The notes: generated by a model from the sequence alone, not told the origin. DNA of 64,000 nt from an uncultured virus (IMG/VR IMGVR_UViG_3300031088_000603) (IMGVR_UViG_3300031088_000603), one strand, 5' to 3'; counted from the stretch's first letter, positions 13,436 through 47,494 are shown. A program made the numbers and translations.

Positions 13436-14587
13436 ATGACCACCACACCACATCACATCATCGACAAGAATGGGAAACACACCACCGTTCATCGACGTGT
13501 TGATGGTGCTTCGTCAAACAAGAAGGCAATTCCGACAGCGCCGACAACACCTATCAAATACCAGGATTACCGGCAGAACGGCGTACTGACTGGTCGAGAG
13601 ATGCTAATGCTTGGTGGCACTGCTGAGCTAGGAAGATACCTTCGAGATAACTTCGGTTGGCAACCCGTCATTCGCGCAACTGACAGTAATTTTGGTGTCA
13701 TCGAAGGTGCTCCCGACTATAACTCCTTGTGGGACAAGATGGCTGTAATGACACCCGAAGGAGCCATTATTGATGGCTATGGTGTCTACACCAAAGAGCA
13801 GTACATGAAAGCCGCAACGCACAAGACAGAGCGACTTTGCGAAGTGGGCGAAGACATCTTCGATGAGATTACCGAAGATATCGACCAGCCCGGAACCTCT
13901 GCTGGAATGATCGCCGTAGTGGCTTCCAAGATCCATATGTCCGTCTACGGAACAAACTCTATCGACTGGCACCGTGAGCTAGACGATGCTGATGTGGTCA
14001 ACGTCAATGGCAAGGACTTCTACGTTGGTATCGAGGGATGGAACAGCCTTGCATGTCAGAAATGCGGCACATTCCTTCATGAGTCAGTGCTGTCCATAGA
14101 TATCGAATGGGGAGATGCGAATACTTGCCAGCAATGCGGAGATGAGTTCAGTCTCGCCACTCTGACGTGTGCTATTCGACCTGGGTCAGTTGACTTACTT
14201 GACGATGATTATGCGCGTGAAGTCTCCTGGTATCACGCCAGTGTCAATCCCAACTGGGGAGAAGAAATAGCGAAAGCCGTTGATAATCCAGTCGTTCACT
14301 TGGGAGAGAAAGACACTGCGTTAGATAGGGCTAGTCATGTCAATTCCAGTGGCTTGTCTAAGATGTACCTCTACGAGGTCAAGATCAAACCAGAAGCTCC
14401 GCTATCCGCCTCGCTTCATCCTGATGACAACGTGAATCAGCCGCAAAATGCTGATCAGATGAGCAAGAAGGACGGCATGACTGGTAATGGTGTCAACAGG
14501 TATTTGAACGAGTACGAGACACAAGGCGCTATCTCACTGATGGCGCATAACCAGTCATTCGAAGTCATCGGAATGACAGCCATCTAG
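13436..14587 (+). CDS. DKNG-leader protein with Zn ribbon and ADP-ribosyltransferase-like C-terminal domain
   Basis: IIDKNGKHTTVHRR; CQKC..CQQC; WYHAS..VVHLG..LYEVKI..RYLNEYETQGAIS. Confidence 0.65.
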   Translation: MTTTPHHIIDKNGKHTTVHRRVDGASSNKKAIPTAPTTPIKYQDYRQNGVLTGREMLMLGGTAELGRYLRDNFGWQPVIRATDSNFGVIEGAPDYNSLWDKMAVMTPEGAIIDGYGVYTKEQYMKAATHKTERLCEVGEDIFDEITEDIDQPGTSAGMIAVVASKIHMSVYGTNSIDWHRELDDADVVNVNGKDFYVGIEGWNSLACQKCGTFLHESVLSIDIEWGDANTCQQCGDEFSLATLTCAIRPGSVDLLDDDYAREVSWYHASVNPNWGEEIAKAVDNPVVHLGEKDTALDRASHVNSSGLSKMYLYEVKIKPEAPLSASLHPDDNVNQPQNADQMSKKDGMTGNGVNRYLNEYETQGAISLMAHNQSFEVIGMTAI

Positions 14588-14635
14588 CTAGCGACCGATG
14601 TACCTGATACGATAGAACCAACCTAAGGAGAACGC

Positions 14636-15232
14636 ATGTCGAACCTCACCCCTAAGAGCATCGTTGACAAGAACGGTAAGGCAACGACCGTCCACATCAA
14701 CCCCGATGACAAGGGCAGCATCGCCAAGGAGCGACTCGACGCTCTTGCCGCTAAGCGCAAGGCAAAGGACGATGAGCCTTACACGCCTGCCAAGTTCGGT
14801 AAGCTCTCCGACAGGTTGCAGGACCGTCAGCAGAACTACACCCCGCAGGAGTTCGTTGAGGGTCGTCCTGACTACGAGTTCAACCCGCCTGAGCTTGCCG
14901 AGCTTGGCTTCGAGGGATTCCGCTTCACGACAGAGTACTCCGGTGGTCGCGTGAGTAGCGCATTCGTCATCCTCACCGAGCCTCGACCCGAAGAGGACAA
15001 GGACTACATCGACCGCTTCAAGCACGCCGTGCAGATGTCCTACTCGCCCGATGATGACCCCTATGTCATCACTGAGATCGATGCAGATGAGCTTCCTGGT
15101 CACACCAAGGAATCGCTCACCGATGCCATCAACACGCACGGTATGGACGGTGCGTGGATGAGCCTGAACACCTTCGAAGAGGCAATCGAGTTCTACGGCG
15201 GTCCTGACAAGGATGGTCACCTCCGCCGCTAA
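14636..15232 (+). CDS. DKNG-leader acidic protein
   Basis: IVDKNGKATTVHI; SD AAGGAG. Confidence 0.75.
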   Translation: MSNLTPKSIVDKNGKATTVHINPDDKGSIAKERLDALAAKRKAKDDEPYTPAKFGKLSDRLQDRQQNYTPQEFVEGRPDYEFNPPELAELGFEGFRFTTEYSGGRVSSAFVILTEPRPEEDKDYIDRFKHAVQMSYSPDDDPYVITEIDADELPGHTKESLTDAINTHGMDGAWMSLNTFEEAIEFYGGPDKDGHLRR

Positions 15233-15301
15233 GTACCACCAGAAGAACCCTCCGTTGCAACTAACCGCGACGGAGGGTTTCTTCTTTGCTACGATGTCGC
15301 C

Positions 15302-15805
15302 ATGTTTCGAGATGAGTATGACGCGCAGTTGAAGAAAGAGTTGGGCATTTCCGATAAGCCCTACTACATCTTCCTTGCGGTGGTCGGAGTTCTTGCGCTC
15401 ATCGGATTCATCTTTGCTGCCCAGGCTGTTGATCGGTTCAACACGAACAGGTGGAACGACCAGGCTATCCATGATCTCAAGAACATCGCGGTGGCACAGG
15501 ACTTCACCCTCCACCGCGTTGACCATTACGGTGACTCAGTGCGCGACATCAATAACATCTCGCTAGAACTGACACAGAAGGACATCAAGGGCATCAACCT
15601 TCTAATTGACCCAGGTGTCGAGACCTCGGTGAAGACCAACAAGGACCGAACTGCGTATGTTGCAGCGGTCATGTCGAAGACCGGGAGCGTGTATACCCTC
15701 TCATCAGAGTCAAACGATATTGAGTCGTACGGTTCGCTGGAAGAGTATGAGCGTGATGCGGAGTCTCCGCTCGATGATGTTCTCATGCCGGTGTTCAACC
15801 TGTAG
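15302..15805 (+). CDS. membrane-anchored pilin-like protein
   Basis: TM followed by DQAIHDLKNIAVAQ helix and YVAAVMSKTGSVY. Confidence 0.55.
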   Translation: MFRDEYDAQLKKELGISDKPYYIFLAVVGVLALIGFIFAAQAVDRFNTNRWNDQAIHDLKNIAVAQDFTLHRVDHYGDSVRDINNISLELTQKDIKGINLLIDPGVETSVKTNKDRTAYVAAVMSKTGSVYTLSSESNDIESYGSLEEYERDAESPLDDVLMPVFNL

Positions 15806-15853
15806 CCTCTGAGCCGTCTCACCCTTACGGTATGATTGGTTCAGGAAGAGAAC

Positions 15854-17113
15854 ATGACTACCGTACCTACCCCAATCGTTGACAAGAACGGCAAGAGGAC
15901 CACTGTCTATCGCCGTCTACTCGGGCGCTTTGGTCGCAGCCGAGAGCTTCCCGCAGTCGTTGCTAAGAAGGAGATTCAGGAGAGGTCTTTCGATGTCGAA
16001 TCGGGAGTCTTGACCAAGAGTCAAGTCAAACTTCTGCGTCATGATCCTACAGCGATTAGAAGCCTCTGTGATCACTTCAATTGGGAGATGATGGCTATTG
16101 GTCCCGTGCCTAAGAACATCAAAGTCCGCGAAAAAAGCGGAGGCGGACCTCAGTCATGGAATATCAACTGTCAGAACTGGTATGGCTTCGCTGCTGTTAC
16201 ACCGGACGGCGCTATCGTCGATACGACAGGTATCTACGCTTCGGTTGAGTCGTTCAGAGCATCTCTTCCGCTCGATGCTGTACCCCGTGCTTCTTTCCAA
16301 AAGGTCGAGAGGAATCTCGTGCCTAGAAAGTCGATGGATTACGACCACATCGATCCTTCTATTGCTATCGAGAAGATAGGGTACGCGGCGCTCAGTGGCG
16401 ACCATAGAGACGCTCTGACAACCGTTGACGACATCCCGTCCATCTCCCTAGGCAAGGAGCAGGCACGTCGCTCTCAGGAAGACGTAGAACTCGGTCGTGA
16501 GCCTTCAGGATTTGATGTGCCCATCGCCACTAAGCGTTTTCTGGTTGCATGTCCGCTCTGCCAGACGTTCTATCGCGACAGTGATGCTAACTCGGCATCA
16601 GTAGGCATGGAATGCCCTGGTTGCGGTAAGTACAACGAACCCCATACGTTGATTGTTGGCGTTCTTCCTGAAGATGTCGAGCTACTCACCAGTGATGATG
16701 CTGTTAGACAGAGAACGTGGTATCACGTCAGCACTCGCGAAGACTGGATGGGTGAAATTGACAAGGCGGAAGTCACGCCGGTTGTTCATCTCGGGTCGAA
16801 GAAGGCTGCCTACGAAAGAACTAATCAGTTGGAGTTCAAGAATCTTCGCATCTACGAGGTAAAGCTCAACGACGACATCCCTATCTCGCCGGTCATCGAG
16901 ATAGATGACACTGACAGGCAACCAATCACTGTTGACCAGTTAGAGCCACACCCCAACATGGTTGATGGTGCTAACCGCTACATCAACTCGTTTGAAGACT
17001 GCGGGAGTGTGTCGTTGATGGTGAACCCGACAATGTTCACGGTCATAGACTCTAAATCCATCCGCTATGACCTTGCCACGATGAGGCTTGCCGAGACAGT
17101 CAGGGGAGAATGA
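15854..17113 (+). CDS. DKNG-leader protein with Zn ribbon and ART-like domain (paralogue of 13436)
   Basis: IVDKNGKRTTVYRR; CPLC..CPGC; WYHVS..VVHLG..IYEVKL..RYINSFEDCGSVSL. Confidence 0.65.
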   Translation: MTTVPTPIVDKNGKRTTVYRRLLGRFGRSRELPAVVAKKEIQERSFDVESGVLTKSQVKLLRHDPTAIRSLCDHFNWEMMAIGPVPKNIKVREKSGGGPQSWNINCQNWYGFAAVTPDGAIVDTTGIYASVESFRASLPLDAVPRASFQKVERNLVPRKSMDYDHIDPSIAIEKIGYAALSGDHRDALTTVDDIPSISLGKEQARRSQEDVELGREPSGFDVPIATKRFLVACPLCQTFYRDSDANSASVGMECPGCGKYNEPHTLIVGVLPEDVELLTSDDAVRQRTWYHVSTREDWMGEIDKAEVTPVVHLGSKKAAYERTNQLEFKNLRIYEVKLNDDIPISPVIEIDDTDRQPITVDQLEPHPNMVDGANRYINSFEDCGSVSLMVNPTMFTVIDSKSIRYDLATMRLAETVRGE

Positions 17114-18276
17114 CAATGAGCACAGTACCCACCTCAATCATCGACAAGAACGGTAAGCGAACCACCGTGCATCGCCGTGTCGATAAGGCTAGTGGTGCCG
17201 ATAGAAGCATCCCGTCAGTAGTCAAGGCATCTAAGGTCAAGCCGATGGACTTTGCCAAAGAGGGTGTCCTTCTGCCACACGAGTCTGACACCTATTGGAA
17301 CAGGCATCTACTGGTCCGAAAGCTCTGCCAGGACTACGGATGGGACATGGTTGCCTTTGGTCCTGTAGGTCCGGACGATAAGGTCATCGAAAGCGCATTA
17401 GGCAAAGAGGGCGATTGGTATGAGGTTGCGGCACTGACACCAGAAGGTGCTCTCGTCAACACCAAGGGTATCTTCAACTCAATTGCCGAGCTACATGGTA
17501 CGTTTCGTGGAAACATCGACCGCTACCCATTGCAGAAGATCGAACTAGACAGCATCGTCTACTTTGAGGACATGACGAAGGGTTGGGGTGATGGCAGGGC
17601 TGACATCGATATCGTCTCAGCGAAGATTCATGGTGCTGTTACTGGTCAAGGCGGCGATGAGTGGATGGAGAACGTCGCAGATCTTGACAGTATCACGTTC
17701 AATGGTCAGCGTATCGCTATCGGCGTAGATACTCATAGCAACTTCGCGTGCCTGCAATGCGGCAACCTGTTCCAGTCCGGTATCAAGATGAACTACAACC
17801 CGCAGTGTCAAGCCTGTGGTGCTATCTCATCTCGTGACGACATCGAGGTTGTTCTCAAGCCTGAGTCGGTGCCGATGCTTCAAGATGACAAGAACGTTCT
17901 GGAAGCTTCCTGGTATCACATCAGCATCCGTAAGGACTGGGTTGCAGACCTTAACTCGGACGAAGACAAGCCTGTCGTTCACCTTGGTTCCAAAGAGGCG
18001 GCTATGGAGCGCATGAGCGATATCGGTGAAGATGAGATGTACCTCTATGAGGTGAAGTTGAACCCTGGTATTCCTATCGCTAAGCACCTTGAAGACGACC
18101 TCAACGACTACCAGCCGGAGCTTGTTTCGCAGATGGAGAAGAGTACCGTCATGGAGGCGGATGGTGCCAACAGGTACATCAACCGCTATGAGGATGCAGG
18201 CTCGGTGTCACTCATGGTTTCACCCGATAGCTTCACGGTGACTAAGGTCGAGTTGATTGGTGTAGAAGACAAATGA
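17110..18276 (+). CDS. DKNG-leader protein with Zn ribbon and ART-like domain (paralogue of 13436)
   Basis: IIDKNGKRTTVHRR; CLQC..CQAC; WYHIS..VVHLG..LYEVKL..RYINRYEDAGSVSL. Confidence 0.65.
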   Translation: MTMSTVPTSIIDKNGKRTTVHRRVDKASGADRSIPSVVKASKVKPMDFAKEGVLLPHESDTYWNRHLLVRKLCQDYGWDMVAFGPVGPDDKVIESALGKEGDWYEVAALTPEGALVNTKGIFNSIAELHGTFRGNIDRYPLQKIELDSIVYFEDMTKGWGDGRADIDIVSAKIHGAVTGQGGDEWMENVADLDSITFNGQRIAIGVDTHSNFACLQCGNLFQSGIKMNYNPQCQACGAISSRDDIEVVLKPESVPMLQDDKNVLEASWYHISIRKDWVADLNSDEDKPVVHLGSKEAAMERMSDIGEDEMYLYEVKLNPGIPIAKHLEDDLNDYQPELVSQMEKSTVMEADGANRYINRYEDAGSVSLMVSPDSFTVTKVELIGVEDK

Positions 18277-18791
18277 CAACCGTACCTACCCAGGTCATCG
18301 ACAAGAATGGTAGGCAGACAACTGTTCACAAGTCGGTGGGTAAGGCATCCGCGAATCAGCGAATTCCAGCACCTCGCAAAGAGTCAGTGACCGCCATTCA
18401 TCGTCGTCTCAGTGACTCCGATGACGCTTCCATGTCCGGCATTAGAAGCTACTTCAAGGACTTCTCCACACCAGAAGGTTCATCCAACTTCTGTGAGGGC
18501 GCTTCTATCGATCTCGTCGAGATGATAGGTGGTGAGATGATTCGCGTCACCGGTCTCGTCGAGGAACCAACCCGCAATCCCAACAGCGCATCTCAATCTG
18601 CCATTGAGCACCATGCTGTGCTCAAAAATGGCTATGTCTATGACGTGACTGCTCGTCAGTTTGAGCCTGATGCTGACTTCCCGGAAATCGTTCCTGCCGA
18701 AGAGTTCTTTGCCAAATGGGACCAAATCGAGGTCTACGGCAAGGACGATGACGGTGAAGAAGGATGGAACTCACTATCGGATGAACTGTGA
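18273..18791 (+). CDS. DKNG-leader protein with putative papain/transglutaminase-like Cys-His-Asp domain
   Basis: VIDKNGRQTTVHK; NFCEGAS..EHHAVL..YDVTARQF. Confidence 0.55.
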   Translation: MTTVPTQVIDKNGRQTTVHKSVGKASANQRIPAPRKESVTAIHRRLSDSDDASMSGIRSYFKDFSTPEGSSNFCEGASIDLVEMIGGEMIRVTGLVEEPTRNPNSASQSAIEHHAVLKNGYVYDVTARQFEPDADFPEIVPAEEFFAKWDQIEVYGKDDDGEEGWNSLSDEL

Positions 18792-18865
18792 GCTAACTTT
18801 TGCTTCCTATCACGATTCAAATGAGTTACTCTTTCCGCCTAGCAGCAATCACAGGAGAGATTTAG

Positions 18866-19222
18866 ATGGGTTACCGCTCAGAGCACTTCATTGGTTACGG
18901 GGTCAATCTTGGCAGCCCTTCGGAGTTCCCCGAGTCCTTAGCGGCTCTTCCCGGTACTGGATTTGCCACCGGTCTTGAAACGCTCATCCGCCGTGAGATG
19001 CCTCGCTTTCGAGTTGCTATCGCCGGAGACCTTCGTTCAGAGAATCCCCAGTACGTTGTCGTACTGGGCAGCACCATCGGGTCGGTGAAGACTACCGCTC
19101 AGGATGCCGTTGATGCTGCTGATGAACTAAGCGAAGACGAATCGTTGATACTGGATGTCTTCTTGAAGCAGTTCGATGTCACGCAAGAAGCCAATTGGAT
19201 TGAATGGGAGCGAGTCTCCTAA
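18866..19222 (+). CDS. hypothetical protein, paralogue of 22874
   Basis: MGY..GYGVNLG..VAIAGDL..WIEW; SD AGGAG. Confidence 0.7.
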   Translation: MGYRSEHFIGYGVNLGSPSEFPESLAALPGTGFATGLETLIRREMPRFRVAIAGDLRSENPQYVVVLGSTIGSVKTTAQDAVDAADELSEDESLILDVFLKQFDVTQEANWIEWERVS

Positions 19223-19231
19223 TAGGAGTAA

Positions 19232-19720
19232 GTGGATATGAGTAAGAGTCTGTTGAAAGCTGTTGGTTTCGTTGCTGCTGGTGCCGGAGGTGCTGCCGCT
19301 GCTGGGGCGGCTTACTACACCTTCTTCCACCCCTTCAATGAGAAGGTCGAAGCACCCGCTAAGAACGTCCGTCACAAGGAGTTTGATGTCCGCGCCAAGA
19401 ACGTCATCAACACCATCACGAGTGCTGAGGAACTCATCTACTTCAACACTGGTTTCTACGCCGATTCACTCGATGGTCTCGTGAGTAACGCTGCCTCTTT
19501 CGGCTTGAACGTCGATATCGCAGCACTGCGTTCGGAAGCCGATATCTCACTTGTAGGAACTGATGACCAGGATGACTTTGCTGTCATCGTGAAGTCTCAC
19601 TCAGGTCGTGTCTTTGTCCAGACCTCGCACTATGGCAAGATCCTCTCATACACGAACCCGGAGGATTACAACACCAAGACTGGTGGCGTTGTGGGTGGAA
19701 TTACCGTTCCGCTTTTCTAA
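19232..19720 (+). CDS. pilin-like membrane/secreted protein
   Basis: Ala-rich hydrophobic N-terminus; ITSAEELIYFNTGFYADSL and FAVIVKSHSGRVF resemble 15302. Confidence 0.55.
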   Translation: MDMSKSLLKAVGFVAAGAGGAAAAGAAYYTFFHPFNEKVEAPAKNVRHKEFDVRAKNVINTITSAEELIYFNTGFYADSLDGLVSNAASFGLNVDIAALRSEADISLVGTDDQDDFAVIVKSHSGRVFVQTSHYGKILSYTNPEDYNTKTGGVVGGITVPLF

Positions 19721-19787
19721 GCGCTGAACAGCATAGAAGAAAGCCCCGACGATGTTCTGTCGGGGCTTTCTTCGTACCTAAGGGTTA

Positions 19788-20747
19788 CTAGTATGTCTCG
19801 CCGCTAGACATACGGATGTAGATGGTTGTTCCATCCGCTGCGGTGTATTCCCTCTGCTCATTTCCTTCATCGATCCAGACCGGCTTGTCGGAGTCTTCGG
19901 GGTAGATACGCTCGATGAATTCGTTTGCTGTGATACCTCTTGTTACCAGCGCGTTAATGGAATCACTTCGCCCTGCGCCGTCTAGCTCCTTGAGGGTGTC
20001 AAATACTCGGGCAGGGACACCGCTCACCTTAGCAAGATCCTCAGAAGAGAATCGGTACGTCTGCTTATGCCTCAGTACGTCGGGGATGTTCTGCTTCATT
20101 TCGTCAGCACTCATAACGTGCCACATTCGCCCTTGCGACTGGACTGTGAGTCCGTAGGTGTAGCTACCCAAAGGGTCTATCCTGAAGTCTGAGAAGTCGG
20201 GATCGCTGTTCAGGGCGGTGACTGCATCCACGAACTCCTTCTCAGTACCTTCAACAGCGAAGCTCTTGGCTACTTCATTGATGTCGGTGGACACCTTCTT
20301 GAAGAATGCTGCGGTCGGGTCATCCACCTCGTAACCAAAATCGATGTCATTCGTGTACGCCGTGTAGACGAATGCGTTTTCGGGTAGCTCATCGAGGTTG
20401 TTCTCTCGAAGGTAGCTCTGGACCGCCTGATCGTCATACTCAGAGACCTCACTAACCTCGAACATCATTCCGTCATTCATTACGCCGTATCCCGGCACGG
20501 ATACGATAAATCCGGTTCGCCCTTGTGACGTAAGCTCTGGCGGATTCTTGGTAATCTCCATACTGAGTCCGCGTCCCTTGTTGACGGGGGTGTCGAGCTT
20601 GTCGAGTTCATCCGCAAGCACGTTTTCTTCCTGCACCTGTGGCGGTCGAGAGGGGAGCTTTGCGGGATCGGGTAGCTTGGGCGGGTTACGGTGAACTGTT
20701 GTCTGCTTGCCGTTCTTATCGACAATCGGGGTGGGTATCTTCGTCAT
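19788..20747 (-). CDS. DKNG-leader protein, paralogue of 21761
   Basis: IVDKNGKQTTVHR plus Pro-rich linker; PELTSQGRTG..PGYG and REYTAADGT shared with 21761. Confidence 0.75.
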   Translation of the reverse strand: MTKIPTPIVDKNGKQTTVHRNPPKLPDPAKLPSRPPQVQEENVLADELDKLDTPVNKGRGLSMEITKNPPELTSQGRTGFIVSVPGYGVMNDGMMFEVSEVSEYDDQAVQSYLRENNLDELPENAFVYTAYTNDIDFGYEVDDPTAAFFKKVSTDINEVAKSFAVEGTEKEFVDAVTALNSDPDFSDFRIDPLGSYTYGLTVQSQGRMWHVMSADEMKQNIPDVLRHKQTYRFSSEDLAKVSGVPARVFDTLKELDGAGRSDSINALVTRGITANEFIERIYPEDSDKPVWIDEGNEQREYTAADGTTIYIRMSSGETY

Positions 20748-20880
20748 GGATGAGATCCTTTCTCACTCATCTTACTGCGTTCATGCGTCACTCATCTTGG
20801 GATGGACATGTTGCGGTCACTCCGATTCAGTGATAAAGTCTGTTTATCGAATGAATCGCTCATAACCAGCAGGAGAAATC

Positions 20881-21336
20881 ATGTCCGAATACACGCCTCG
20901 TCCGTTCCCCGTCACCAACAAGTGCGACCGTGAGTGCACGGTCATGAAGCACGAACACCTGAACGAGGGCGAGGTGTTCGTGATGCTGGGTGAGGAGTAC
21001 CTCGTCGTCAAGGTGAACCGTGTCAACCTCGTCGTCCTGAACCTCGGCACCAAGGTCGTCTACAACTACCACCGTGACGCGGGCGGAACCGCCATCCGCT
21101 ACGACCAGAAGGCTCTCAACGACTACCACCTCGGCAAGATGAAGAAGTTCGATGCCGTCGTACCCCAGACGGAGAAGTCCTTCAAGCTCGGTGACCCGGT
21201 GACCATCGTCGGCTCCAAGTACAAGGGCAAGACCGGACTCGTCTGCAAGGTCAACCCCAAGAACTACCACGTCGTGATCCGCAAGCTCGGGGTCGTGTCG
21301 TTCCACCCGAGCTTCATCGCTGCTGAGTCCGAGTAG
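20881..21336 (+). CDS. basic protein with C-terminal KOW/SH3-like motif
   Basis: FKLGDPVTIVGSKYKGKTGLVCKVN; SD AGGAG; strong codon bias. Confidence 0.7.
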   Translation: MSEYTPRPFPVTNKCDRECTVMKHEHLNEGEVFVMLGEEYLVVKVNRVNLVVLNLGTKVVYNYHRDAGGTAIRYDQKALNDYHLGKMKKFDAVVPQTEKSFKLGDPVTIVGSKYKGKTGLVCKVNPKNYHVVIRKLGVVSFHPSFIAAESE

Positions 21337-23512: not shown

Positions 23513-25453
23513 TCATCCTGTCGTGATGCTCTTACGGTATTCCTCAGCAACTGGCTTTTCTACGAAGTCGAAGACGTTCACCTTATGACGCTTCAAGACT
23601 TCGAGGACGGCGCTTGGTGAGGTGTAGAAGAACTCCTTGCGCTGGTTGATCTTGTTCACTCGATCCTTGGCGAATGCGTCATGCAGCAACCCTTCCAGAG
23701 CTACCGCGTCATCAGAGAAGACGATGGTGTGCACATCGAATCTGAATGGGACCGATGCGTCTCCCAGTTCGAGCACTCGCTCCATTGGGTCAAGCCTTCT
23801 GGTCATGCCTATCTTGACGACCCGTTCACCGAATGCGCCGATGTTGGAGATGACGTAGACGTAGCCTGCCCGGGTATTCGCTGCTCTAAAGTCAGTCTTC
23901 TTGATCTCGCTGCCAACTTCTTCGAGCTTGCCTTGTGCTTCTTCTACCTCGCGCTGCTTATCGATGATGGCTTGCATGTCCTGGTGTTCACGGCGGGCAT
24001 CAGCAAGCTCTTTCTCCAAGCGTCCGAGTACGTTTCGGTAGTGAGACTCTTCCTTGGCGAGTTTGTCCTTCTGGACCTTGATCTCGGCTTCGACCTTTGC
24101 CTGTTCACGGATGAGTTCTTTCCTTTCCCGCTCGGCATCTCGTTCTGCGTCCAGAGCCATCCGGTACTGCGCCGCGAGCTTGATTTCCTGCTCTCGCAAG
24201 GTGATGTACCTACTGGCTATCCGAAGGTCGAGCATCTTCCCAAAGGTCTGAATCTTGTCAGCAGTCGCACGAAGCTTCTTGATGGATGGTTCCGGGTTAC
24301 CCCTGGTGCTCTTAGTGAGGTTCATCGCCTCCGTGTTGAACATGTTCAGAGCGAGCTTCTCGATGGACCGGGTGAACTTCAATCCCTCTTCCGATGAGTT
24401 GTTGAAGACCATCGGCGTGCAAGTGGTCGCCTTCTTGTCCTTCACCACCTGCTTGATTTTCTCCTTCAGCGTTTCGAGCTTAGCTTTCAGAGCAACGGAG
24501 TTCTCAGCAGGGTGTTCATAGTCGATGAGACCGGATTCGACGTAGAGGGTTTTCTCGTCGAGAAGGGACTCGATACTGCGAAGTTTCAACTGCTTGCTCT
24601 TGATAGCCCTATCGACTTCATGCCATTCATGCACTCCCTCGATTGCTGCTACGAAATGGTTGAACTCACCCTCCTTGCGGACTATCTCACGGTCGAGGTC
24701 TTTTACTTGCCTGGTGAGACCTTGCACGTTGATGCGCATTTCGATGAAGGAACCGATTTCCGCTCCTTCGCGGAGGTATCTGTCGATGGAATCTTGACGG
24801 TGAGCTACTTCCGCACGGAGGTTCTCGATGTCATAGCTCAGCCCTAGACGCTCCTGTACGGCGTTCAAATCGGTACTAGCTGCTTCCAGTTCGTCCAGCA
24901 GCCTATTCGCCTGCTCTGCGATACCACGGAACTGCTCACTCTTGCTACGGAGCTTACCCGTCGTTAGGAACATCGGCACCATGAGTTCTCGGTCTCGGAG
25001 CGCTTGATGCTTCTTCGCCATCTTCACGGCGGTCCTGTCTGCGTCTTGTGCCAGTGCCAGATGAGCGGGGATGCCTTGTTCGATGACTGACTGCGGTATC
25101 TCGTCAACCGTGCGTGGTGCGTGTACCTCGGTAGCGATGACTTCACTCGTCATCTCATCAGCTTCAGCTTCAGCTTCGACTTCGGATGAGATGGTGCCCT
25201 CCGGTACAGACGGAATCCGTTCTGGCTCTTCCTGTACCGCGCTCTCCGGCTCTGTAAGGACTTCTGCGCCTTCTCGGGTGCTCACGTCCTCTTCGACGCG
25301 CTCAGGGGCGCTGACGGCTTCCACTTTGGTATCCACTAATGCCGGTGATGTCTGTTCAATGGGAGTGACATGGGATGTCCATGCGGTTCCATCCCACCAT
25401 CGTGCTTGGGTGGCATCGGTCGGGTCGGGATACCAGTTGGCGGAGGCGGACAT
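23513..25453 (-). CDS. DUF2510 + coiled-coil + DUF4041 + T5orf172 (GIY-YIG-like) domain protein
   Basis: ANWYPDP..RWWDGTAWT; RAGYVYVISNIGAFGERVVKIGMTRRLDP..ELGDASVPFRFDVH..RKEFF. Confidence 0.9.
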   Translation of the reverse strand: MSASANWYPDPTDATQARWWDGTAWTSHVTPIEQTSPALVDTKVEAVSAPERVEEDVSTREGAEVLTEPESAVQEEPERIPSVPEGTISSEVEAEAEADEMTSEVIATEVHAPRTVDEIPQSVIEQGIPAHLALAQDADRTAVKMAKKHQALRDRELMVPMFLTTGKLRSKSEQFRGIAEQANRLLDELEAASTDLNAVQERLGLSYDIENLRAEVAHRQDSIDRYLREGAEIGSFIEMRINVQGLTRQVKDLDREIVRKEGEFNHFVAAIEGVHEWHEVDRAIKSKQLKLRSIESLLDEKTLYVESGLIDYEHPAENSVALKAKLETLKEKIKQVVKDKKATTCTPMVFNNSSEEGLKFTRSIEKLALNMFNTEAMNLTKSTRGNPEPSIKKLRATADKIQTFGKMLDLRIASRYITLREQEIKLAAQYRMALDAERDAERERKELIREQAKVEAEIKVQKDKLAKEESHYRNVLGRLEKELADARREHQDMQAIIDKQREVEEAQGKLEEVGSEIKKTDFRAANTRAGYVYVISNIGAFGERVVKIGMTRRLDPMERVLELGDASVPFRFDVHTIVFSDDAVALEGLLHDAFAKDRVNKINQRKEFFYTSPSAVLEVLKRHKVNVFDFVEKPVAEEYRKSITTG

Positions 25454-25693
25454 AGCTATACCTGTCTGTAGGGTCATCCTCAGTATCCCGTACGAATACA
25501 ACCCATCAAGGCTTTACTTGCCTCTCTGCCGCAATTTGTCCCCTCCCTGACCCCTGACGTGACCAACGAAGCTATAAAGCTATAGTCCCCGCTCCACCTG
25601 CTCGTTCTCTTACTCCAAGCCCGCAGAACGGCGTACAGCGCTTCAGACAAAGAGGCGGGGTTACCCAGTTCCCTGAATAACCCCGCCTGTGTC

Positions 25694-28228: not shown

Positions 28229-29098
28229 TTAGCGTTCGATACCGGTTCGTGCTTCAACGTAGTCACAGATAAACGTGTCGAGAGCAATGAGCCTACGGTC
28301 GTTATCCCAGTCGAGCACCCCTTCTTCTAAGCAGAAGTCGTAGCCTTCTGCTGTCTCGTTGCTGACAAATGCTTCCTTGTCGTAAGCATCAGGGCGGTAT
28401 TCGTTCGGTAGGGAATCATAATACTCAATGATCTTTTTGCCGCTGAACTTGTTGTTGGTATCGATAAGAGTAACAGCCACTTCACTGGATACGTTGCCCT
28501 CGGTGAGTGCGATGAGGTCTTTGTCGCCGTCTTCCTTGTCTAGACCGAGGATCTCTTTGAGAGTGTCGTTGTTATCGACAGCCGTGATGAGCGCCTTCCG
28601 TCCGGGCATGAAAACATCTATCGGGTCTGGATGGTCTTCGATGGAGTACACGTACGCTTTCAATGCGCCAGGTAGATTGGAGGATAGACCAAGCTCGTCA
28701 TTGACAGCATCCTGAACTCTCTGCACACTCAATCGACCGCCGTCTTGCGTAATGACGGTTTTGCTGATGATTTCACTTTTCCCGGAGTCGAAGTCGAACA
28801 GACCACCAAGCTCCTGGTTGAGGGTATAAAGCTTGTGTCCACCCTCGCGCACCCATTTCTTGAGGTCATAGCCCTCGCTACTGAGTCGGAATTCAACAAC
28901 GTTTCCGCGTTTGACATCGCCTGTCTCGACGCGCTTGCGTAGTTCTTCTTGTGCTGCTGTGCTGCTCGGTGTTGATGCGGCAAACCTGCTGATGTTGAGG
29001 CGCTGACGTGCCTTGGCGGTGAGTTCATCTTCACGCACCATTCTGGTGTACTGGTTGCCGTTTACGTCAACACCGATTTTTGTTGTGAGGTTGGACAT
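28229..29098 (-). CDS. DKNG-variant leader protein, tandem paralogue of 29135
   Basis: IGVDVNGNQYTRM; GNVVEFRLSSEGYDLKKW shared with 29135. Confidence 0.75.
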   Translation of the reverse strand: MSNLTTKIGVDVNGNQYTRMVREDELTAKARQRLNISRFAASTPSSTAAQEELRKRVETGDVKRGNVVEFRLSSEGYDLKKWVREGGHKLYTLNQELGGLFDFDSGKSEIISKTVITQDGGRLSVQRVQDAVNDELGLSSNLPGALKAYVYSIEDHPDPIDVFMPGRKALITAVDNNDTLKEILGLDKEDGDKDLIALTEGNVSSEVAVTLIDTNNKFSGKKIIEYYDSLPNEYRPDAYDKEAFVSNETAEGYDFCLEEGVLDWDNDRRLIALDTFICDYVEARTGIER

Positions 29099-29134: not shown

Positions 29135-29902
29135 TTAGAGAGATTCGCTGTATACGCGACCGTAATCGACAACGAATTTCTTTATTGCGAGTTCCTTGAA
29201 GAAGGGGGTAGGAGCACCACGCGGGACTGTTGATTGGTACTCGTAGGGAAGCTGCTCGAAAGCCTTGTTGAATTCGGTGCGATTTTCCTCGGTTGAATTG
29301 AGGAGATTGTTTCGGTAATTGCCGGTCGGGTCATGTTGGAACAGCTTCGTTTGACCTTCATCGGTGTCAGCGCCAATGAAGTGAGCAAGCGCGGTGTGGT
29401 TTTCGACATGTTCGAGGATTTCGTGGTCAGCCATAACGAAATTGTCGTCACCGGGTTTGATAGGCTCGATGTTGGTAACTGCAACGTCGAAGTAATCCTC
29501 GGGGTCGGTGATACCGAATGCGCTTTCAAAGCGCTCCTTGACATCCTCAACGTCACCAAAGTCATCATTGAGCGACTGAGGAATACGCCATACGATCTCG
29601 TTGGTAGAGTCATTAAAATCCACCGCGCCTCCCAGTTCACGACTGAGTTCTTGAAGGCTTAGTCCCGTTGCCCACTTGCGGAAGTCGTAAGTCTCACTAC
29701 TGAAGGACAGTTCGACAACCTCGCCCTTGTAGACCTCGCCACGCTCCAAACGGTTGAGGAAAGTGTTGGTGTTGATGTCCTTCTTGACATAGCCATCGAG
29801 CGACAGGATGCTGCGCTTGGTCTCCAGCGCGTCAGGACTTATCATCCTGGTGTATCGTCTGCCGTTCTTGTCGATGCCTGTCTTGGGTACGAGGTTCGTC
29901 AT
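29135..29902 (-). CDS. DKNG-leader protein
   Basis: TGIDKNGRRYTRM; GEVVELSFSSETYDFRKW. Confidence 0.75.
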   Translation of the reverse strand: MTNLVPKTGIDKNGRRYTRMISPDALETKRSILSLDGYVKKDINTNTFLNRLERGEVYKGEVVELSFSSETYDFRKWATGLSLQELSRELGGAVDFNDSTNEIVWRIPQSLNDDFGDVEDVKERFESAFGITDPEDYFDVAVTNIEPIKPGDDNFVMADHEILEHVENHTALAHFIGADTDEGQTKLFQHDPTGNYRNNLLNSTEENRTEFNKAFEQLPYEYQSTVPRGAPTPFFKELAIKKFVVDYGRVYSESL

Positions 29903-32243: not shown

Positions 32244-32603
32244 TTAGTCGCGTGTGAGGTGAGGATGAGCCTCGTAGAAGGCAAGAACCGTCTTCTCAGA
32301 GATGGTGTCGGAGGCACCTTCGAGTAGACCTCGCATGCTTGCCCACACGCGGATGCGGGCGTTGAGGACTGTTGTCCCCGCGTCTACGACGGGCTTCGTG
32401 ACGACTGACTTAGTTGCGCTACCCGCAACTCGATCAGTAACCCGACTGCCCGTTATCCATCGCTGCATGTGACGCTCGAACGTCTTGCGGTTGCGCTTGT
32501 TGAGGTCGATCTCGTAGTCAGTGCCGCCGAAGGAGAAAGTGACAGTCTCGGCTTCACCTGCCCCACCCAGATCGTCAGAGATTCTTACAGTAGTGGTCTT
32601 CAT
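32244..32603 (-). CDS. lsr2: Lsr2 nucleoid-associated protein
   Basis: ISDDLGG..ETVTFSFGGTDYEIDL dimerisation domain and IRVWA..IS..VLAFYEAH DNA-binding domain. Confidence 0.9.
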   Translation of the reverse strand: MKTTTVRISDDLGGAGEAETVTFSFGGTDYEIDLNKRNRKTFERHMQRWITGSRVTDRVAGSATKSVVTKPVVDAGTTVLNARIRVWASMRGLLEGASDTISEKTVLAFYEAHPHLTRD

Positions 32604-32620
32604 TGGTTTCTCTCCCTTTA

Positions 32621-33343: not shown

Positions 33344-33370
33344 GAGTGTGACTTTCTTGGTCTGTAGAGG

Positions 33371-33856
33371 TTACTTCTCGAAGGGTGCGACGACAGCGTT
33401 CACTCGCGCGATAAGGTTTGCGTCGGCAATCTCGTCACGGTTGGTCGTCTGGTACTTCACCCAGCTAGCAAGCGCTCGCTCGGTCTGCTCGGCTGCATTG
33501 ACCTTGGGCGCTCGACCGTGAGTCTCAGTCCACTTGGTGAGCTTGCTGAACGTCCTCTCCCACTGGCGGTCCTGACGCACGACGAAGGCGTTCACATCCG
33601 CAACGGTGGGGTTTTTGTCACTGAGGTACCGCTCGATTCTTGCCGCCTTGCGAGCCGCTACCTCGGCATCCCTAGCCTCTTTGATTGCGATTTTACGAGC
33701 CTCAGCGTCAGCAATGCGCTGCGTCTCGCGTTCAGCGTTCTCTTTACGAAGCTGTGCCCGCTCTTCTGCGGTCTCCATCTTACGTTCTGCTCGCTCGTTC
33801 TGACGCGCGACGATAACCTCGCTGCGGAGGTTGAGCTTTTCAGAGGGGATAGGCAC
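33371..33856 (-). CDS. coiled-coil + single HA domain protein (GTG start, MPIPSEKLNL)
   Basis: WERTFSKLTKWTETHGRAPK..ERALASWVKYQ; N-terminus like that of 32621. Confidence 0.75.
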   Translation of the reverse strand: MPIPSEKLNLRSEVIVARQNERAERKMETAEERAQLRKENAERETQRIADAEARKIAIKEARDAEVAARKAARIERYLSDKNPTVADVNAFVVRQDRQWERTFSKLTKWTETHGRAPKVNAAEQTERALASWVKYQTTNRDEIADANLIARVNAVVAPFEK

Positions 33857-33973
33857 GATGATTCTTTCGCTAGGGTTTGTCGTCTTTCTACATCCTAGCG
33901 TAGATAAACCGAAGTTGCAAACAGCGAAAGACCCCGTGTCTTCAATCGACACGGGGTCTTTCGTCTTACCGAG

Positions 33974-34924
33974 TTAGCGCCACTCGGGGAGGATGCTGGT
34001 GAGAAGTGCCTCACGCTCAGGGGTCCACTTGCCACCCTTGCCGTTCGCGGCGGCACGAGCCTGCGCGAGCCAGATGTACTTTCGGCTCTCGACGGCATCG
34101 TCCGAACCGTAGCGGGGAAGGTGACCGTTCTCCTTCACCCAGTCAGCGACCTCCTGAGCGCGGTCCTCCCACTTGCCACGGGGGATGCGCGTGCCATCAG
34201 CGACGGTCGAAGAACCGCGCCAGCCGGGGGTCTTCTCGTCGAGAAATGCACCGTACTGCTCGTCCCAGCGGTGCGTGCCCGAACCCTTGGATGCCGAACG
34301 CATGTTGATCATCCAGAAGTTGTGGCGCTGCTCATCAGCGTCATCGGTGGGGTAGCGGGGAAGACGACCGTTGGTCTCGACCCAGGCGACGAACTCGGCG
34401 GCAGCCTGCTCCCAGGTGCGGTACTCGCGGCGCTTCTTGCCACGCCACCCGGGCACTCGCTCGTCGAGGATGGCGAGCCGCTCATCGCGGATGCGGATGC
34501 CGTCAGCGGTCGTGGGGTTCATGACCTTCTGGTTGAGTCGCCAGACAGCGAGGTCGTTCTCTTCGCGGTCGGTCTTGCTGCGCTGGGGGAAACGCTCGTG
34601 CTCCGCGACCCAGGTGACGAGGTGCTCCAGGTGGGACTCCCACGTCTGGTAGTGGCGCGACGATGCGGCGCTCTTCGACTTGATTGCGGTGTTCTCGATC
34701 TTGTCGGTGTCGGCGTTCCATCCGGGAACAACCGTGTCGAGGTAGTCGAAGAACTGGTCGGACTTGCTGTCCGTGCTCTGGCGGCTGATCTGGTGAATCC
34801 ACCAGTCGCGGTGCTCCGCGTAGTCGTTCTCCGCACCGGTCGCGGCGTACGGGAGACCGCCGTTGCGCTGAACGAATTCAGCGAAAGAGTCGGCGCTCTT
34901 CTTCCAGGCATCGAATACAGACAT
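33974..34924 (-). CDS. HA domain repeat protein (about 4 repeats)
   Basis: WE..WVxxNGxLPR..W..xR..LDxxxPGW repeats. Confidence 0.8.
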   Translation of the reverse strand: MSVFDAWKKSADSFAEFVQRNGGLPYAATGAENDYAEHRDWWIHQISRQSTDSKSDQFFDYLDTVVPGWNADTDKIENTAIKSKSAASSRHYQTWESHLEHLVTWVAEHERFPQRSKTDREENDLAVWRLNQKVMNPTTADGIRIRDERLAILDERVPGWRGKKRREYRTWEQAAAEFVAWVETNGRLPRYPTDDADEQRHNFWMINMRSASKGSGTHRWDEQYGAFLDEKTPGWRGSSTVADGTRIPRGKWEDRAQEVADWVKENGHLPRYGSDDAVESRKYIWLAQARAAANGKGGKWTPEREALLTSILPEWR

Positions 34925-36342: not shown

Positions 36343-36403
36343 AATGCCTCCTTAGGCTGGTTTGTGAGCGCTAGTGTCTCACATGTCTAGTGGTGATACC
36401 ACC

Positions 36404-37162
36404 TCAACGCATGTCGAATCCTGCATCTGCGGCGTATACGTGTGCGAGAGTGATCACGTTAGGGTCGTTTTCATCGACGAAGATGGGCGACTTCAGACGG
36501 TTACTCACGATGCATGTGCCAGCCGGATGTACGGTTCGGTGGGAGTCGCAGTAGAGGTAGCTCGCGCCATACTGACTATCGTCCATTCCCTCGGGGTCCA
36601 CGCCAAATGCTCGTGCGTACTGCCTGTGAACCTCACGATCTTCCAGCATCAACTCCATATCGAGAGCGAAGGGAGGCATAGGGCTGAATGCGCGAGGAAG
36701 AACTGTGGAAGAAGCCTTGGCGGGGTCAACCCAGTCGCCCGATTCGATTACCTTGGCGAGATCTTGGTAAAGGTGATCCTTTGCCTCTTCGTTATCGCCA
36801 AAGATGTCATTTGCTTCCTTGTCAGTGGGGTTCGAGGCGAGCATGATTGCGTCAACCCAGGTCGGCTCTTCGACTTCGGTACGATTGCCGCGAGCGTTGC
36901 TGCCTTCTTGATACTCGATGGTCTCGGCGTTCATCATGTCACGGTCGTATTCGCGCCAGAGGTGCTTGAATGTTCGGTCGAAGTAAGTACCAGAAGCAAC
37001 AATCGACTGTGCAGCGTCCTTGCGAAGACTCATCTGCTTCTGCGGAGAGTTACTCGACATCGACGGAAGGATGCGATTCGTCGTGGCATCCTTGTCGGAG
37101 CCTACCCAGACATGAGTCTGCTTACCGTTCTTGTCAGTCGTGGGGATGCGTCGCTTGCTCAT
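36404..37162 (-). CDS. DKNG-leader protein
   Basis: IPTTDKNGKQTHVWV; SD AAGGAG. Confidence 0.75.
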   Translation of the reverse strand: MSKRRIPTTDKNGKQTHVWVGSDKDATTNRILPSMSSNSPQKQMSLRKDAAQSIVASGTYFDRTFKHLWREYDRDMMNAETIEYQEGSNARGNRTEVEEPTWVDAIMLASNPTDKEANDIFGDNEEAKDHLYQDLAKVIESGDWVDPAKASSTVLPRAFSPMPPFALDMELMLEDREVHRQYARAFGVDPEGMDDSQYGASYLYCDSHRTVHPAGTCIVSNRLKSPIFVDENDPNVITLAHVYAADAGFDMR

Positions 37163-37293
37163 TACTGCTCCTTTGTTGTTCTCAGTGTACAGGAGCGAGA
37201 TGACAATGATTCACATGCGCCGACCGCTATTTGACTGTCGCCCAGGATCTTGATAGGATTTACTCAAAATACACGACGAAAGACGACTTCCTT

Positions 37294-40178: not shown

Positions 40179-40886
40179 ATGTCCAGCAACAAGCAAGTCG
40201 TCACCAAGCCAGTTCAGGGTAAGAACGGCGTTCACATGCAGCGATTCCACGTGAACGCTGATGCGAACGATGCAACAGCGAAGCGAGTTAGCGGTGTTGC
40301 AGCGCCCGCTAGTTCTGCCACCCCGGCACGTGAGGTAACCATCCAGATTGACTACGGCAATCCGCAGCCTATCTACCTGAAGGCATCTTCGTATGGCATG
40401 AGCACCGGTCTCAACTTGTCTCGTGAAGAGGCACGGAATATGTTCAATCAGCTAGATCACCTACTTGGCGAGAATACCGAGGAATATGTTCCTGCTGAGA
40501 AGTCAGATGATTTAGTGCGCGATGTCAGTGTCATCATTGATGAGAACGACTCGTACCGTCCTTACCAGCTTCGGGTCGGACAGCACGGTATGTACTCAGC
40601 TACGAATATGACGCACGATGAGGTCATGCTTTCTGCTGATGCTCTTGGTGCATATCTCGATGGAGAGCACAACTTGCCTGAACCCAACGTTTCAAAAGAT
40701 GTTGACCTCGAAGATTACATCCGTGACGCAAACGGTATCAACTTCATGCTCCGCCGACAGCTTGGTAAGGCGCTTGCGTCTGATAACGGTCGAGCAGAAG
40801 TTCGCGAGCTTCTCGAAAATGCTGATGAAGACAAGATCGAGCCACAGGTACGTTCTAACATCGAGTACTTGGAAAAGAGCTACTAA
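40179..40886 (+). CDS. DKNG-variant leader protein with internal duplication
   Basis: TKPVQGKNGVHMQRFHV; REVTIQID..YGMSTGLN versus RDVSVIID..HGMYSATN. Confidence 0.7.
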   Translation: MSSNKQVVTKPVQGKNGVHMQRFHVNADANDATAKRVSGVAAPASSATPAREVTIQIDYGNPQPIYLKASSYGMSTGLNLSREEARNMFNQLDHLLGENTEEYVPAEKSDDLVRDVSVIIDENDSYRPYQLRVGQHGMYSATNMTHDEVMLSADALGAYLDGEHNLPEPNVSKDVDLEDYIRDANGINFMLRRQLGKALASDNGRAEVRELLENADEDKIEPQVRSNIEYLEKSY

Positions 40887-43856: not shown

Positions 43857-43923
43857 CACTAGATTTTACTTGTGATAGGATTCAAAGTTATCGAAAATCA
43901 GAATCCTACCCGAAGGAAAAATC

Positions 43924-44735: not shown

Positions 44736-44820
44736 GTCAAGATGCAAGCAAGGCTGCGTTTCATTCACATGGGATGCAGCCTTGTTTGCTTTACGCCCTG
44801 TGTGGTGGTAAGGTTACCTT

Positions 44821-44963: not shown

Positions 44964-45028
44964 AACAATCTCCGTCCTTATGCAGGGCGGAGATTGCTCT
45001 TTAAGCCATCAGGAGTTAGTCTGTTCAT

Positions 45029-45927: not shown

Positions 45928-45936
45928 TCTGTCAGT

Positions 45937-46473
45937 ATGAGACCAGAGCATCGCGTCACCCTATCGTGCGGTAAGACTTTCGGTGACATGGAGCGCTATG
46001 CGTTCACTGGTACGAACTCCAACTGGCTGTTGATCACCACCAACATCTCTGTCGTGCCTGAGCACTGGATGGAAGAGATGGCTTCGCAGTTCGCTTCGGT
46101 GGGCGCACTGAGCGCCTATCTTCGTAGTCGTGTGATGCGACGGTTCTTCAAAGCCATCAACTACCACGAGCCTTCATCATGGCTGACAGGAAACAGTGAG
46201 ATGGATGCGCCGGTCAAGGCTGGTAGCGCCTTCATCAACAGCGCACACCGAGAGGTCATGGATAGTGCCGTACCCAGCGCGAGCAAGGCTCTTGCAATGC
46301 TCTGCGTCATGTCCGGTATCGGCATCGATGATGTGACCGAACTGTTCAAGTCTCGCAAGCCGTCAGACATCACACAAATGGTGATTGCAGGCTATGACCT
46401 CACTGCCATCGAGGGCGCTGTCGCCAACAACATCGACATGACGCTGCTACTTTCGCTTGTGGATGCAGCATAA
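45937..46473 (+). CDS. NDID-tail family protein
   Basis: AVANNIDMTLLLSLVDAA. Confidence 0.7.
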   Translation: MRPEHRVTLSCGKTFGDMERYAFTGTNSNWLLITTNISVVPEHWMEEMASQFASVGALSAYLRSRVMRRFFKAINYHEPSSWLTGNSEMDAPVKAGSAFINSAHREVMDSAVPSASKALAMLCVMSGIGIDDVTELFKSRKPSDITQMVIAGYDLTAIEGAVANNIDMTLLLSLVDAA

Positions 46474-46528
46474 CGCACGGGGTGTCACAAGCTCTTAGTA
46501 CACTGGTTCTAATCAACCAGGAGTAGCT

Positions 46529-47494
46529 ATGGGTTCAAATACTAGACCAGTCGTCATCACCGATAAGAACGGCAAGGTCACGACCGTTCACAAGGGTACG
46601 AATTGGCGCACTCAGAATAAGAACCGCGCCGAAGCGCTCGGTAAGCCCGTTTCTGCTGCTGGCTTCCACAATTCACCAGAGATTGCGGAAGCTCTCAAGG
46701 GAGTAACCGAGGCGCGTGAGACCATCTTGAAGAGTCAAGAGAGTTTCGAGCTAGCGAATGTCAACGCCTTGATTCAGACTGTCAAGCACGACTTCTTTGA
46801 TGCGGCTAAGCTCGTTCTTATCGAAGAGAATGATGGACTACCTGAAGCACTCCGCCGTGATGGTGGTCTTGTCGTCACCGCTATCTTGGATGAATCGGGC
46901 AAAGACCTCGGTTACCAGCAAGGTGACTCTGCGGAGTACGACATCTTCGCCAAGAATCTGACCAAGAATTCTGGTGTTATCGCTATGGCAGATGATGGCT
47001 ACCACAAGACCCTCTCATGGGAGGTCGAAGGTGTTTCCGAACCGCTTCCTAATAACTCCGCATTCGGTAGCAAGAAGGTTGCCGATATGGTCAGCGATGT
47101 TGACTGGATCGACGAGAAGAAGGTCTTGGACAAGGTAAGCGAAATCGGTAATTCCGAAGGCGGCGAGCAGGGTATCAAGAACCTTCTCGCGCGCTCATAC
47201 GGTGTTCAGCCCGAGAACATCGAAAAGGCATACAAGTCCACTGACGGTCTCCTAGGTGACAACCATGCAGAGTGGCTATCGGAATCAGAACCCGATCCGT
47301 GGGGTCCGCAGCACCCCGTGCACTACAGAGTCATGATGGGTCGCGAAAGTCACCCAGTGGTTCGTGAGTTGCAGGACTTCGACTACTACGAAATCGACGA
47401 CAATAAGTTTATCGGTGGTCACTACTTCCCCAGCCGCGAGGCGGCTCAGGATGCGTTCGACTCCTTCGTTCGAGATGTGATTATCAACCCATAG
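46529..47494 (+). CDS. DKNG-leader protein
   Basis: VVITDKNGKVTTVHK; SD AGGAG. Confidence 0.75.
   Translation: MGSNTRPVVITDKNGKVTTVHKGTNWRTQNKNRAEALGKPVSAAGFHNSPEIAEALKGVTEARETILKSQESFELANVNALIQTVKHDFFDAAKLVLIEENDGLPEALRRDGGLVVTAILDESGKDLGYQQGDSAEYDIFAKNLTKNSGVIAMADDGYHKTLSWEVEGVSEPLPNNSAFGSKKVADMVSDVDWIDEKKVLDKVSEIGNSEGGEQGIKNLLARSYGVQPENIEKAYKSTDGLLGDNHAEWLSESEPDPWGPQHPVHYRVMMGRESHPVVRELQDFDYYEIDDNKFIGGHYFPSREAAQDAFDSFVRDVIINP

Follow-up and report, generated by a model that had tools for sequence, protein, structure and literature searches.

A conserved N-terminal peptide on diverse acidic proteins of a giant phage-like element as a probable modular address tag

Background

The internal proteins of bacteriophage T4 are diverse defence proteins that have only a capsid targeting sequence (CTS) in common, as set out in the part of PMC3012670 drawn on here, and the CTS-bearing set includes an ADP-ribosyltransferase (ART), according to the sections of PMC5512222 that were consulted. 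The same sections define the polyvalent domain families in proteins that are argued to be injected together with phage or plasmid DNA. In the Photorhabdus virulence cassette (PVC), an extracellular contractile injection system (eCIS), an N-terminal leader of about 50 residues suffices to load unrelated payloads into a phage-tail-like particle, as described in the portion of PMC9054023 used here. In this study we examine a stretch of 64,000 nucleotides from an uncultured virus (IMG/VR IMGVR_UViG_3300031088_000603), referred to throughout as the window, in which a first-pass annotation had noticed a leader common to 11 proteins between positions 13,436 and 47,494 and had read it as a modular tag that loads variable effector cargo into virions. 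Our analyses leave a modular address tag on variable effectors well supported; loading into virions is plausible, though some of the evidence gathered below speaks against it.

Results

The leader in the window

A six-frame scan of the window gave eight matches to DKNG[KR]xT[TH]V, located 10-27 residues into their open reading frames (ORFs, named here by their leftmost position), and no match in 50 shuffles of the same DNA. Eight ORFs begin PTPIVDKNGKxTTVH(K/R). The earlier translations of all 11 ORFs were reproduced, and a hidden Markov model (HMM) of the leader matched 13436, 14636, 15854, 17110, 18273, 19788(-), 36404(-) and 46529 with E values from 2e-16 to 9e-12, scores that are partly circular because five of the 86 non-identical leaders in the profile come from the window. 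The same profile gave ORF 29135(-) an E value of only 0.18 and returned no match at E<1 for ORFs 28229(-) and 40179.

ORFs 29135 and 28229, with 28% identity (E 6e-23), are paralogs that have in common a variant hairpin, G[IV]D[KV]NGxxYTRM. A related element encodes a non-homologous protein that begins with this variant as well, and we therefore regard the two as a divergent subtype of the tag. Membership of 40179 (QGKNGVHMQRFH) in the tag family appears doubtful from its sequence. The leader proposed for 11 proteins is therefore retained for ten, eight of them strong and two variant, while 40179 is left without profile support.

Anatomy of the tag

Alignment of 86 distinct leaders gave the consensus M-x(3-8)-PTP-IV-DKNGK-x-TTVH-KK, followed by 8-12 variable residues and by a second box, R-[VIL]-[PAS]-x-[VIL], that lies 13-16 residues past the His. 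The rows had been picked by the first box alone, the second-box column lying outside the selection pattern, so that the Arg found in this column in 81 of the 86 rows (and the Lys in another four) constitutes independent evidence for a conserved unit of about 35 residues. The tag is longer than had been described earlier, comprising a hairpin, a variable spacer and the second box, after which comes a disordered basic linker.

When run on the 86-row alignment, AlphaFold2 returned a beta-hairpin with strands at residues 3-9 and 15-21 and predicted local distance difference test (pLDDT) values of 88-94, which agrees with the beta-hairpin and NG turn previously suggested for the leader; the second box was modelled as unstructured (pLDDT 68-78). 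In the full-length model of 17110, residues 22-40 between the tag and the body are disordered (pLDDT ~40), which suggests a tag that is tethered to the body and not packed against it. The basic leader and acidic body noted before are borne out by isoelectric points (pI) of 9.8-11.8 for the tags of the window and of 4.1-5.0 for the bodies, the latter having net charges of -17 to -31. At the invariant residues all synonymous codons are in use (four for Gly, four for Thr and four for Val), a variation which argues that the peptide itself is under selection, and not a signal in the RNA or DNA.

No Pfam family was found over the tag, and a profile search of the PDB with the tag yielded chance matches only, of 10-11 residues and E ~1. 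For a complex of two tag copies, predicted from the 86-row alignment, the scores were 0.00 and 0.01 where the mark is 0.42, a result that settles self-association neither way.

Distribution of the tag

To follow the tag in other DNA, we used both a strict DNA pattern, consisting of the back-translated motif, and the leader profile. In IMG/VR the strict pattern occurred on one contig only, a record of 202,737 bp with five matches and 14-17 tagged ORFs, hereafter the related record. On metagenome contigs it was found at no fewer than 148 loci, including contigs of 358, 231, 180, 177 and 100 kb; among the matches listed, 137 of 177 motif occurrences lie 9-13 residues past an ATG, and ten lack an ATG within 40 residues. 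Run against 1.84 billion representatives, the leader profile returned 728 clusters (50% identity) at E<=1e-3, 73 of them at E<=1e-10. Of the best 150 of these 728 hits, 149 have a best-scoring match that begins no later than residue 17; the exception is P0027, a protein of 770 aa with three copies of the hairpin, one N-terminal and two internal, in which the best-scoring match falls at residues 433-454.

Two matches of the strict pattern in 185,579 species genomes of cellular organisms were rejected as chance, both being internal (one in GlnRS, the other in a large secreted protein). A megablast of window positions 13000-21000 against GenBank phages gave no match, and tblastn with a 42-aa leader found nothing at E<=1 in GenBank phages and PLSDB plasmids, the latter being a weak negative because the query is short. 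A full-text literature search on 'DKNGK' returned no paper on the motif in this sense, as judged by the titles of the matches, and nothing on the tag came up when capsid targeting was searched together with anti-defence, or huge phages together with Actinobacteria.

Tagged genes tend to stand together: several metagenome loci hold two or three tags, and the window has an array at 13.4-20.7 kb. Contigs assembled from public runs end or branch at the leader stretches 14660-14696, 15869, 17168 and 20691-20743, a behaviour which suggests that near-identical leader DNA is repeated in those samples.

Bodies carried by the tag

A set of 95 distinct complete tagged proteins with a median length of 233 aa was assembled from the window, the related record and the metagenome loci, and the 93 bodies compared fell into 56 BLAST groups; similarly, 146 bodies taken from the best 150 of the 728 profile hits fell into 83. 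The 11 bodies of the window form eight groups (13436/15854/17110, 29135/28229 and six singletons), the number of families estimated before. Bodies have a median pI of 4.6, with 74% below pI 5; for 117 untagged ORFs of the related record the median is 5.6, with 26% below pI 5.

None of the 11 window proteins has a Pfam family above cut-off, and 226 of the 235 tagged relatives scanned have no Pfam family at all. Pfam matches were obtained in five of 86 tagged relatives, where ART-PolyVal (68 bits) and LPD29 (72.6 bits) were identified; one relative combines ArdcN (41 bits) with MPTase-PolyVal (23.6 bits, below cut-off), the sole case with two named domains, and Tox-PLDMTX was seen twice, both times below cut-off. 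Named domains were present in four of 149 other profile hits, among which GmrSD_N scored 71.6 bits, Tox-PLDMTX 27.6 bits (here above cut-off) and ArdA 26.1 bits against a cut-off of 27, together with LRV_2. Variant tags in the related record head a poly(A)-polymerase/CCA-type nucleotidyltransferase and a GmrSD_N protein. For one further tagged body, homologs that lack the tag are present in 320 actinophage records. The bodies that could be recognised, few in number, are conflict or effector domains.

One body family of the window consists of three paralogs on the plus strand, at 13436..14587 (383 aa; leader 13436-13570, HIIDKNGKHTTVHRR ... KKAIPTAP; E 4e-13), 15854..17113 (419 aa; leader 15854-15988; E 8e-14) and 17110..18276 (388 aa; leader 17110-17244; E 3e-15). 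All three combine a CxxC...CxxC zinc ribbon with a C-terminal domain in which H, R, Y and E residues are invariant, the positions invariant among them being H270, H291, R301, Y313, R355, Y356, E361 and S367. In the 17110 protein the hairpin occupies residues 5-23, the disordered linker 22-40, the ribbon 214-236 and the C-terminal domain 257-388, and the model reaches pLDDT ~90 over residues 250-380.

Three structure searches matched residues 257-388 of 17110 almost exclusively to ART-fold chains. Foldseek gave E values of 0.03-0.5. A Foldseek-independent search had ParT as its best match (Z 7.1, root-mean-square deviation (rmsd) 4.0 A, 121 residues aligned) and also listed a domain of a cyanophage pre-ejectosome protein (Z 5.3, 20% identity), and a second look (VIA) aligned 90 residues with Tpt1 (Z 6.4, rmsd 3.4 A); in the Tpt1 and ParT lists alike, ART-fold chains make up nearly all of the top 50 rows. 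The domain superposes on ART-fold toxins and enzymes (ParT, RES/MbcT, diphtheria toxin, Tpt1/KptA), differing from them in identities of 3-20%, in Z values below 8 and in having no Pfam hit. On the basis of these models, the C-terminal domain of 13436, 15854 and 17110 is predicted to be an ART-like fold; because the Z values are middling, we claim the fold and not the activity, which in this superfamily goes with an NAD-binding catalytic triad of the H-Y-E or R-S-E type. This likeness concerns one body family only and not the tag. Tag-less versions of the 17110-type domain occur on eight plasmids of Rhodococcus, Arthrobacter and Streptomyces, seven of them mobilisable, and in the two cases inspected, relaxase and MobC genes are no more than ~3 kb away from it.

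The other strongly tagged proteins have different bodies. The protein at 18273..18791(+) (172 aa; leader 18273-18407; E 2e-16) has a body with a homolog among the tagged proteins of the related element (31% identity over 163 aa, E 3e-13), and this homolog in turn shows a weak match to the papain-like toxin family Tox-PLDMTX. Those at 14636..15232(+) (198 aa; leader 14636-14770; E 1e-15) and 19788..20747(-) (319 aa; leader 20613-20747; E 1e-15) have acidic bodies without a family, and the body of 19788 found no usable match in the ESM Atlas. Two more lie at 36404..37162(-) (252 aa; leader 37028-37162, TTDKNGKQTHVW ... NRILPSM; E 9e-12) and 46529..47494(+) (321 aa; leader 46529-46663; E 1.5e-12). 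The variant-tag paralogs are encoded at 29135..29902(-) (255 aa; TGIDKNGRRYTRM) and 28229..29098(-) (289 aa; IGVDVNGNQYTRM), and the doubtful member at 40179..40886(+) (235 aa; PVQGKNGVHMQRFH) has a basic start and an acidic body.

Antisense ORFs at 14588-15526(-) and 36374-37234(+) exceed the tagged ORFs 14636 and 36404 in length and are probably spurious, so that a gene caller based on length would choose the wrong strand. Contigs of two metatranscriptome libraries overlap parts of 14636-15232 (at 14660-15250) and of 19788-20747; we take them as a weak hint and do not claim expression, as carry-over of DNA is possible.

The element and its gene content

We take the DNA examined to belong to a giant actinobacterial phage-like element, whose particle or transfer genes, if any, lie outside this DNA. 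The related record, labelled a provirus in IMG/VR with a CheckV completeness of 96%, has a jumbo-phage-like gene set. It encodes DnaE (closest among phages to that of a Streptomyces phage, 37% identity), clamp loader, LigA, GyrA, ribonucleotide reductase, ThyX, dUTPase, RtcB and NAD salvage enzymes, and carries 64 tRNAs and a tmRNA within ~17 kb (about 64.9-81.8 kb; L030:4899 to L031:1841). Its RtcB ligase and CCA/poly(A)-type nucleotidyltransferase lie outside this array. A type I-E set with Cas3, Cse1, Cas7, Cas5 and Cas6e is located at ~114-122 kb (L032:14277 to L033:1760). The record also holds PilB-like, PilT-like and PilC-like type IV pilus genes (L028:4574-9879), a 1030-aa FtsK-type translocase (L190) and a 920-aa AAA_10 ATPase (L034:6395-9157), the two ATPases being far from the tagged genes, as well as peptidase-like proteins of the DUF2201_N and S26 types.

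The window matches Lsr2-like, HA (helicase-associated), DUF2510/T5orf172, PASTA and HindVP families, and no tRNA was found in it. It shares little with the related record besides the tag, the HA-domain proteins and one body. At 32244-34924(-) an Lsr2-like gene is followed directly by three HA-domain proteins. The N-terminus of the Lsr2-like protein bears a loose likeness to the tag; mimicry of Lsr2 by the hairpin was considered on this ground and is not claimed. A 662-aa protein with DUF2510, DUF4041 and T5orf172 is encoded at 23513-25501(-), and a HindVP-type restriction endonuclease (E 5.5e-111) at 52699-53997(-). P0003 and P0090, near-identical homologs of window proteins, lie on contigs of 637,428 and 805,269 bp, which could be very large elements if each is a single one, or host chromosomes with an integrated copy. 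Metagenomes of the phyllosphere, of leaf litter, straw and plants and of food contain DNA of the window; the 20 runs in question belong to 17 studies, of which one is possibly the source.

Leaderless transcripts are common in actinobacteria. A TANNNT box ending 5-10 nt before the ATG was present in 17 of 88 distinct upstream regions of tagged genes (~7 expected by shuffling), and 16 of these 17 starts are without a Shine-Dalgarno sequence; judging from these sequences, the genes in question probably give rise to leaderless transcripts. A shared promoter of the form TGTC-N11-15-TANNNT was considered and rejected (34 sites in the window, 31 expected).

Discussion

The spread over 728 clusters, the diversity of the bodies, the conservation at the protein level, the disordered linker and the finding that the named bodies are conflict domains together argue for a modular tag, which probably acts as an address that brings effectors to one common partner. 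As we picture it, a portable docking module of about 35 residues, made of the basic hairpin PTPIVDKNGKxTTVHKK, the spacer and the second box and continued by a basic Pro/Ala/Ser-rich tether, would be attached to separately encoded, mostly single-domain and strongly acidic conflict effectors. The effector set would include ART-like proteins, antirestriction proteins of the ArdC and ArdA types, a nuclease domain of the DUF262 type and a papain-like toxin fold, besides many unknowns. Through this handle all tagged proteins would be taken to one common receptor of the element, and a changeable set of effectors would travel with the element DNA into the next cell. Such a system would be a non-covalent counterpart of the T4 CTS and of the polyvalent proteins.

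Docking to a common receptor and travel with the DNA into the next cell are suggested by the modularity, the tether, a cargo that matches domains argued to be injected, and the T4 precedent; we advance this reading tentatively, as the best supported of the accounts compared here but one that falls somewhat short of being probable. Its fuller form, in which dozens of separately encoded, exchangeable effectors would be pre-loaded through one docking peptide and delivered with the DNA of a giant element, we consider rather unlikely. Loading of the tagged proteins into virions is plausible.

Several observations weigh against delivery. The families recognised in the 64-kb window include none of capsid, portal, terminase, tail or scaffold type, and the same is true of the 203-kb related record, which was searched with Pfam (124 + 9 ORFs), with PHROGs (66 ORFs) and in three six-frame family searches; the DNA examined for virion genes amounts to 267 kb and represents fragments of the elements. 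At the metagenome loci, 12 of 46 neighbours of tagged genes had a Pfam hit and none of these was structural, all being of accessory kinds (RNA ligase, NUDIX, Macro and NT5C among them). The bodies are acidic, unlike the T4 internal proteins, which contact DNA through lysines (PMC3012670, in the part drawn on here). The two internal hairpin copies of P0027 indicate that a free N-terminus is not required. Many tagged genes have a host-like -10 box of their own, and such promoters would fit expression by the host RNA polymerase right after entry, which would make pre-loading unnecessary. Finally, the FtsK-type translocase, the AAA_10 ATPase and the PilB, PilT and PilC genes imply that a vehicle, should one exist, could be something other than a capsid.

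Part of this evidence fits an intracellular tether, in which the basic hairpin and linker would bind a common hub in the infected cell, such as the element's own DNA, nucleoid proteins like Lsr2 or a host machine, and concentrate the acidic effectors at their site of action, with no packaging or transfer of protein. The opposite charges of tag (pI ~10) and body (pI ~4.6) are consistent with such a role, as are the internal repeats of P0027, which fit a binding module, and the host-like promoters with leaderless starts, which suggest expression right after entry. The same is true of the Lsr2-like protein and three HA-domain proteins encoded in the window, the HA domain being, one body aside, the only non-tag family shared with the related record, and of the failure to see virion genes in either. 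However, the tag resembles no DNA-binding family in Pfam and no solved structure in the PDB profile search, and the recognisable bodies differ in target (NAD-dependent modification of protein or nucleic acid, binding of single-stranded DNA, mimicry in restriction), so that one intracellular address is not obviously apt for all of them. We judge this tether unlikely, while keeping it as the foremost alternative to joint travel with the DNA.

A regulatory handle, recognised by a protease or chaperone that would time the activity of potentially toxic effectors by degradation or by activating cleavage at the Arg box, seems distinctly improbable. The near-invariant Arg followed by a hydrophobic residue in a disordered stretch does resemble a processing site, several bodies are toxin-like (ART fold, papain-like fold), and the DUF2201_N and S26 proteins of the related record are peptidase-like; but a degron would not require so strict a conservation of a 17-residue hairpin, a cognate protease was not identified, and processing would also be compatible with packaging. 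Least probable by far is that the conserved 5' coding stretch serves homologous recombination in swapping bodies, with a peptide of little function, as would suit the clustering of tagged genes in arrays and the breaking of assemblies at repeated, near-identical leader DNA, because the residues stay invariant over scrambled synonymous sites, a pattern that indicates selection for the peptide and in most pairs gives recombination little DNA identity to work on, and because the second box and the charge pattern are conserved too.

Returning to the address tag, if its bearers act at incoming DNA or travel with it, the tag supplies a sequence rule by which candidate effectors of anti-defence and host takeover can be picked out by the hundreds, in a lineage of very large actinobacterial elements that is associated with plants and unexplored. 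In that case it would also represent a third route to arm invading DNA with proteins, beside the covalent polyvalent proteins and the fusions to MuF or portal, and a handle compact and conserved enough to be of use in protein-loading experiments. Should pre-loading be true, the 728 tagged clusters would be a catalogue of mostly unknown injected anti-defence and host-takeover proteins, and the tag a portable handle to load any protein. Even as a tether, one peptide that addresses many unrelated enzymes implies an unknown hub.

Comparison with known systems

As with the signal peptides of PVC payloads, the tag is an N-terminal leader on unrelated proteins. According to the portion of PMC9054023 used here, conserved residues are few in the PVC leaders and point mutations are tolerated, in contrast to the strong conservation of the present tag. 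Pfam and PHROGs gave no match to a sheath, tube, baseplate or Pvc15-like gene in the window or the related record, both of which are fragments of elements.

The likeness to the polyvalent proteins (Iyer, Burroughs, Anand, de Souza and Aravind 2017, PMC5512222, as far as the sections consulted extend) lies in the domain repertoire, with ART-PolyVal, LPD29, ArdC-N and MPTase-PolyVal, and in the proposed logic of effectors that are present at the first moment of invasion. This repertoire was found in the tagged relatives; the window itself contributes solely the fold-level ART likeness. The architecture differs, since the tagged proteins are small and separate while the polyvalent ones, in those sections, have 2-15 domains per chain, and polypeptides with two or more disparate effector domains were not what we found here. 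Linkage to MuF, portal, relaxase or type IV secretion system genes, a feature of the polyvalent systems, was not found for the tagged genes, and in the fragments read no MuF, portal, terminase or conjugative transfer gene was adjacent to one; the tag is not among the domains described in the sections of PMC5512222 consulted.

The T4 CTS differs from the tag in several respects. The tagged proteins of T4 are in the virion, enter the host with the DNA and have their tag cut by the prohead protease, whereas the tag described here is known from genes alone; the cargo here is acidic, and no scaffold, protease or capsid gene was seen in the 267 kb. By description only, the present tag also stands apart in being of about 35 residues, bipartite and provided with a hairpin. 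What the two have in common is that a short N-terminal peptide is the sole shared part of diverse proteins, IPI-III and Alt in T4 and, in the window, eight body families that bear eight strong and two variant tags. As an analogy, the comparison with the T4 CTS and Alt thus appears apt in logic.

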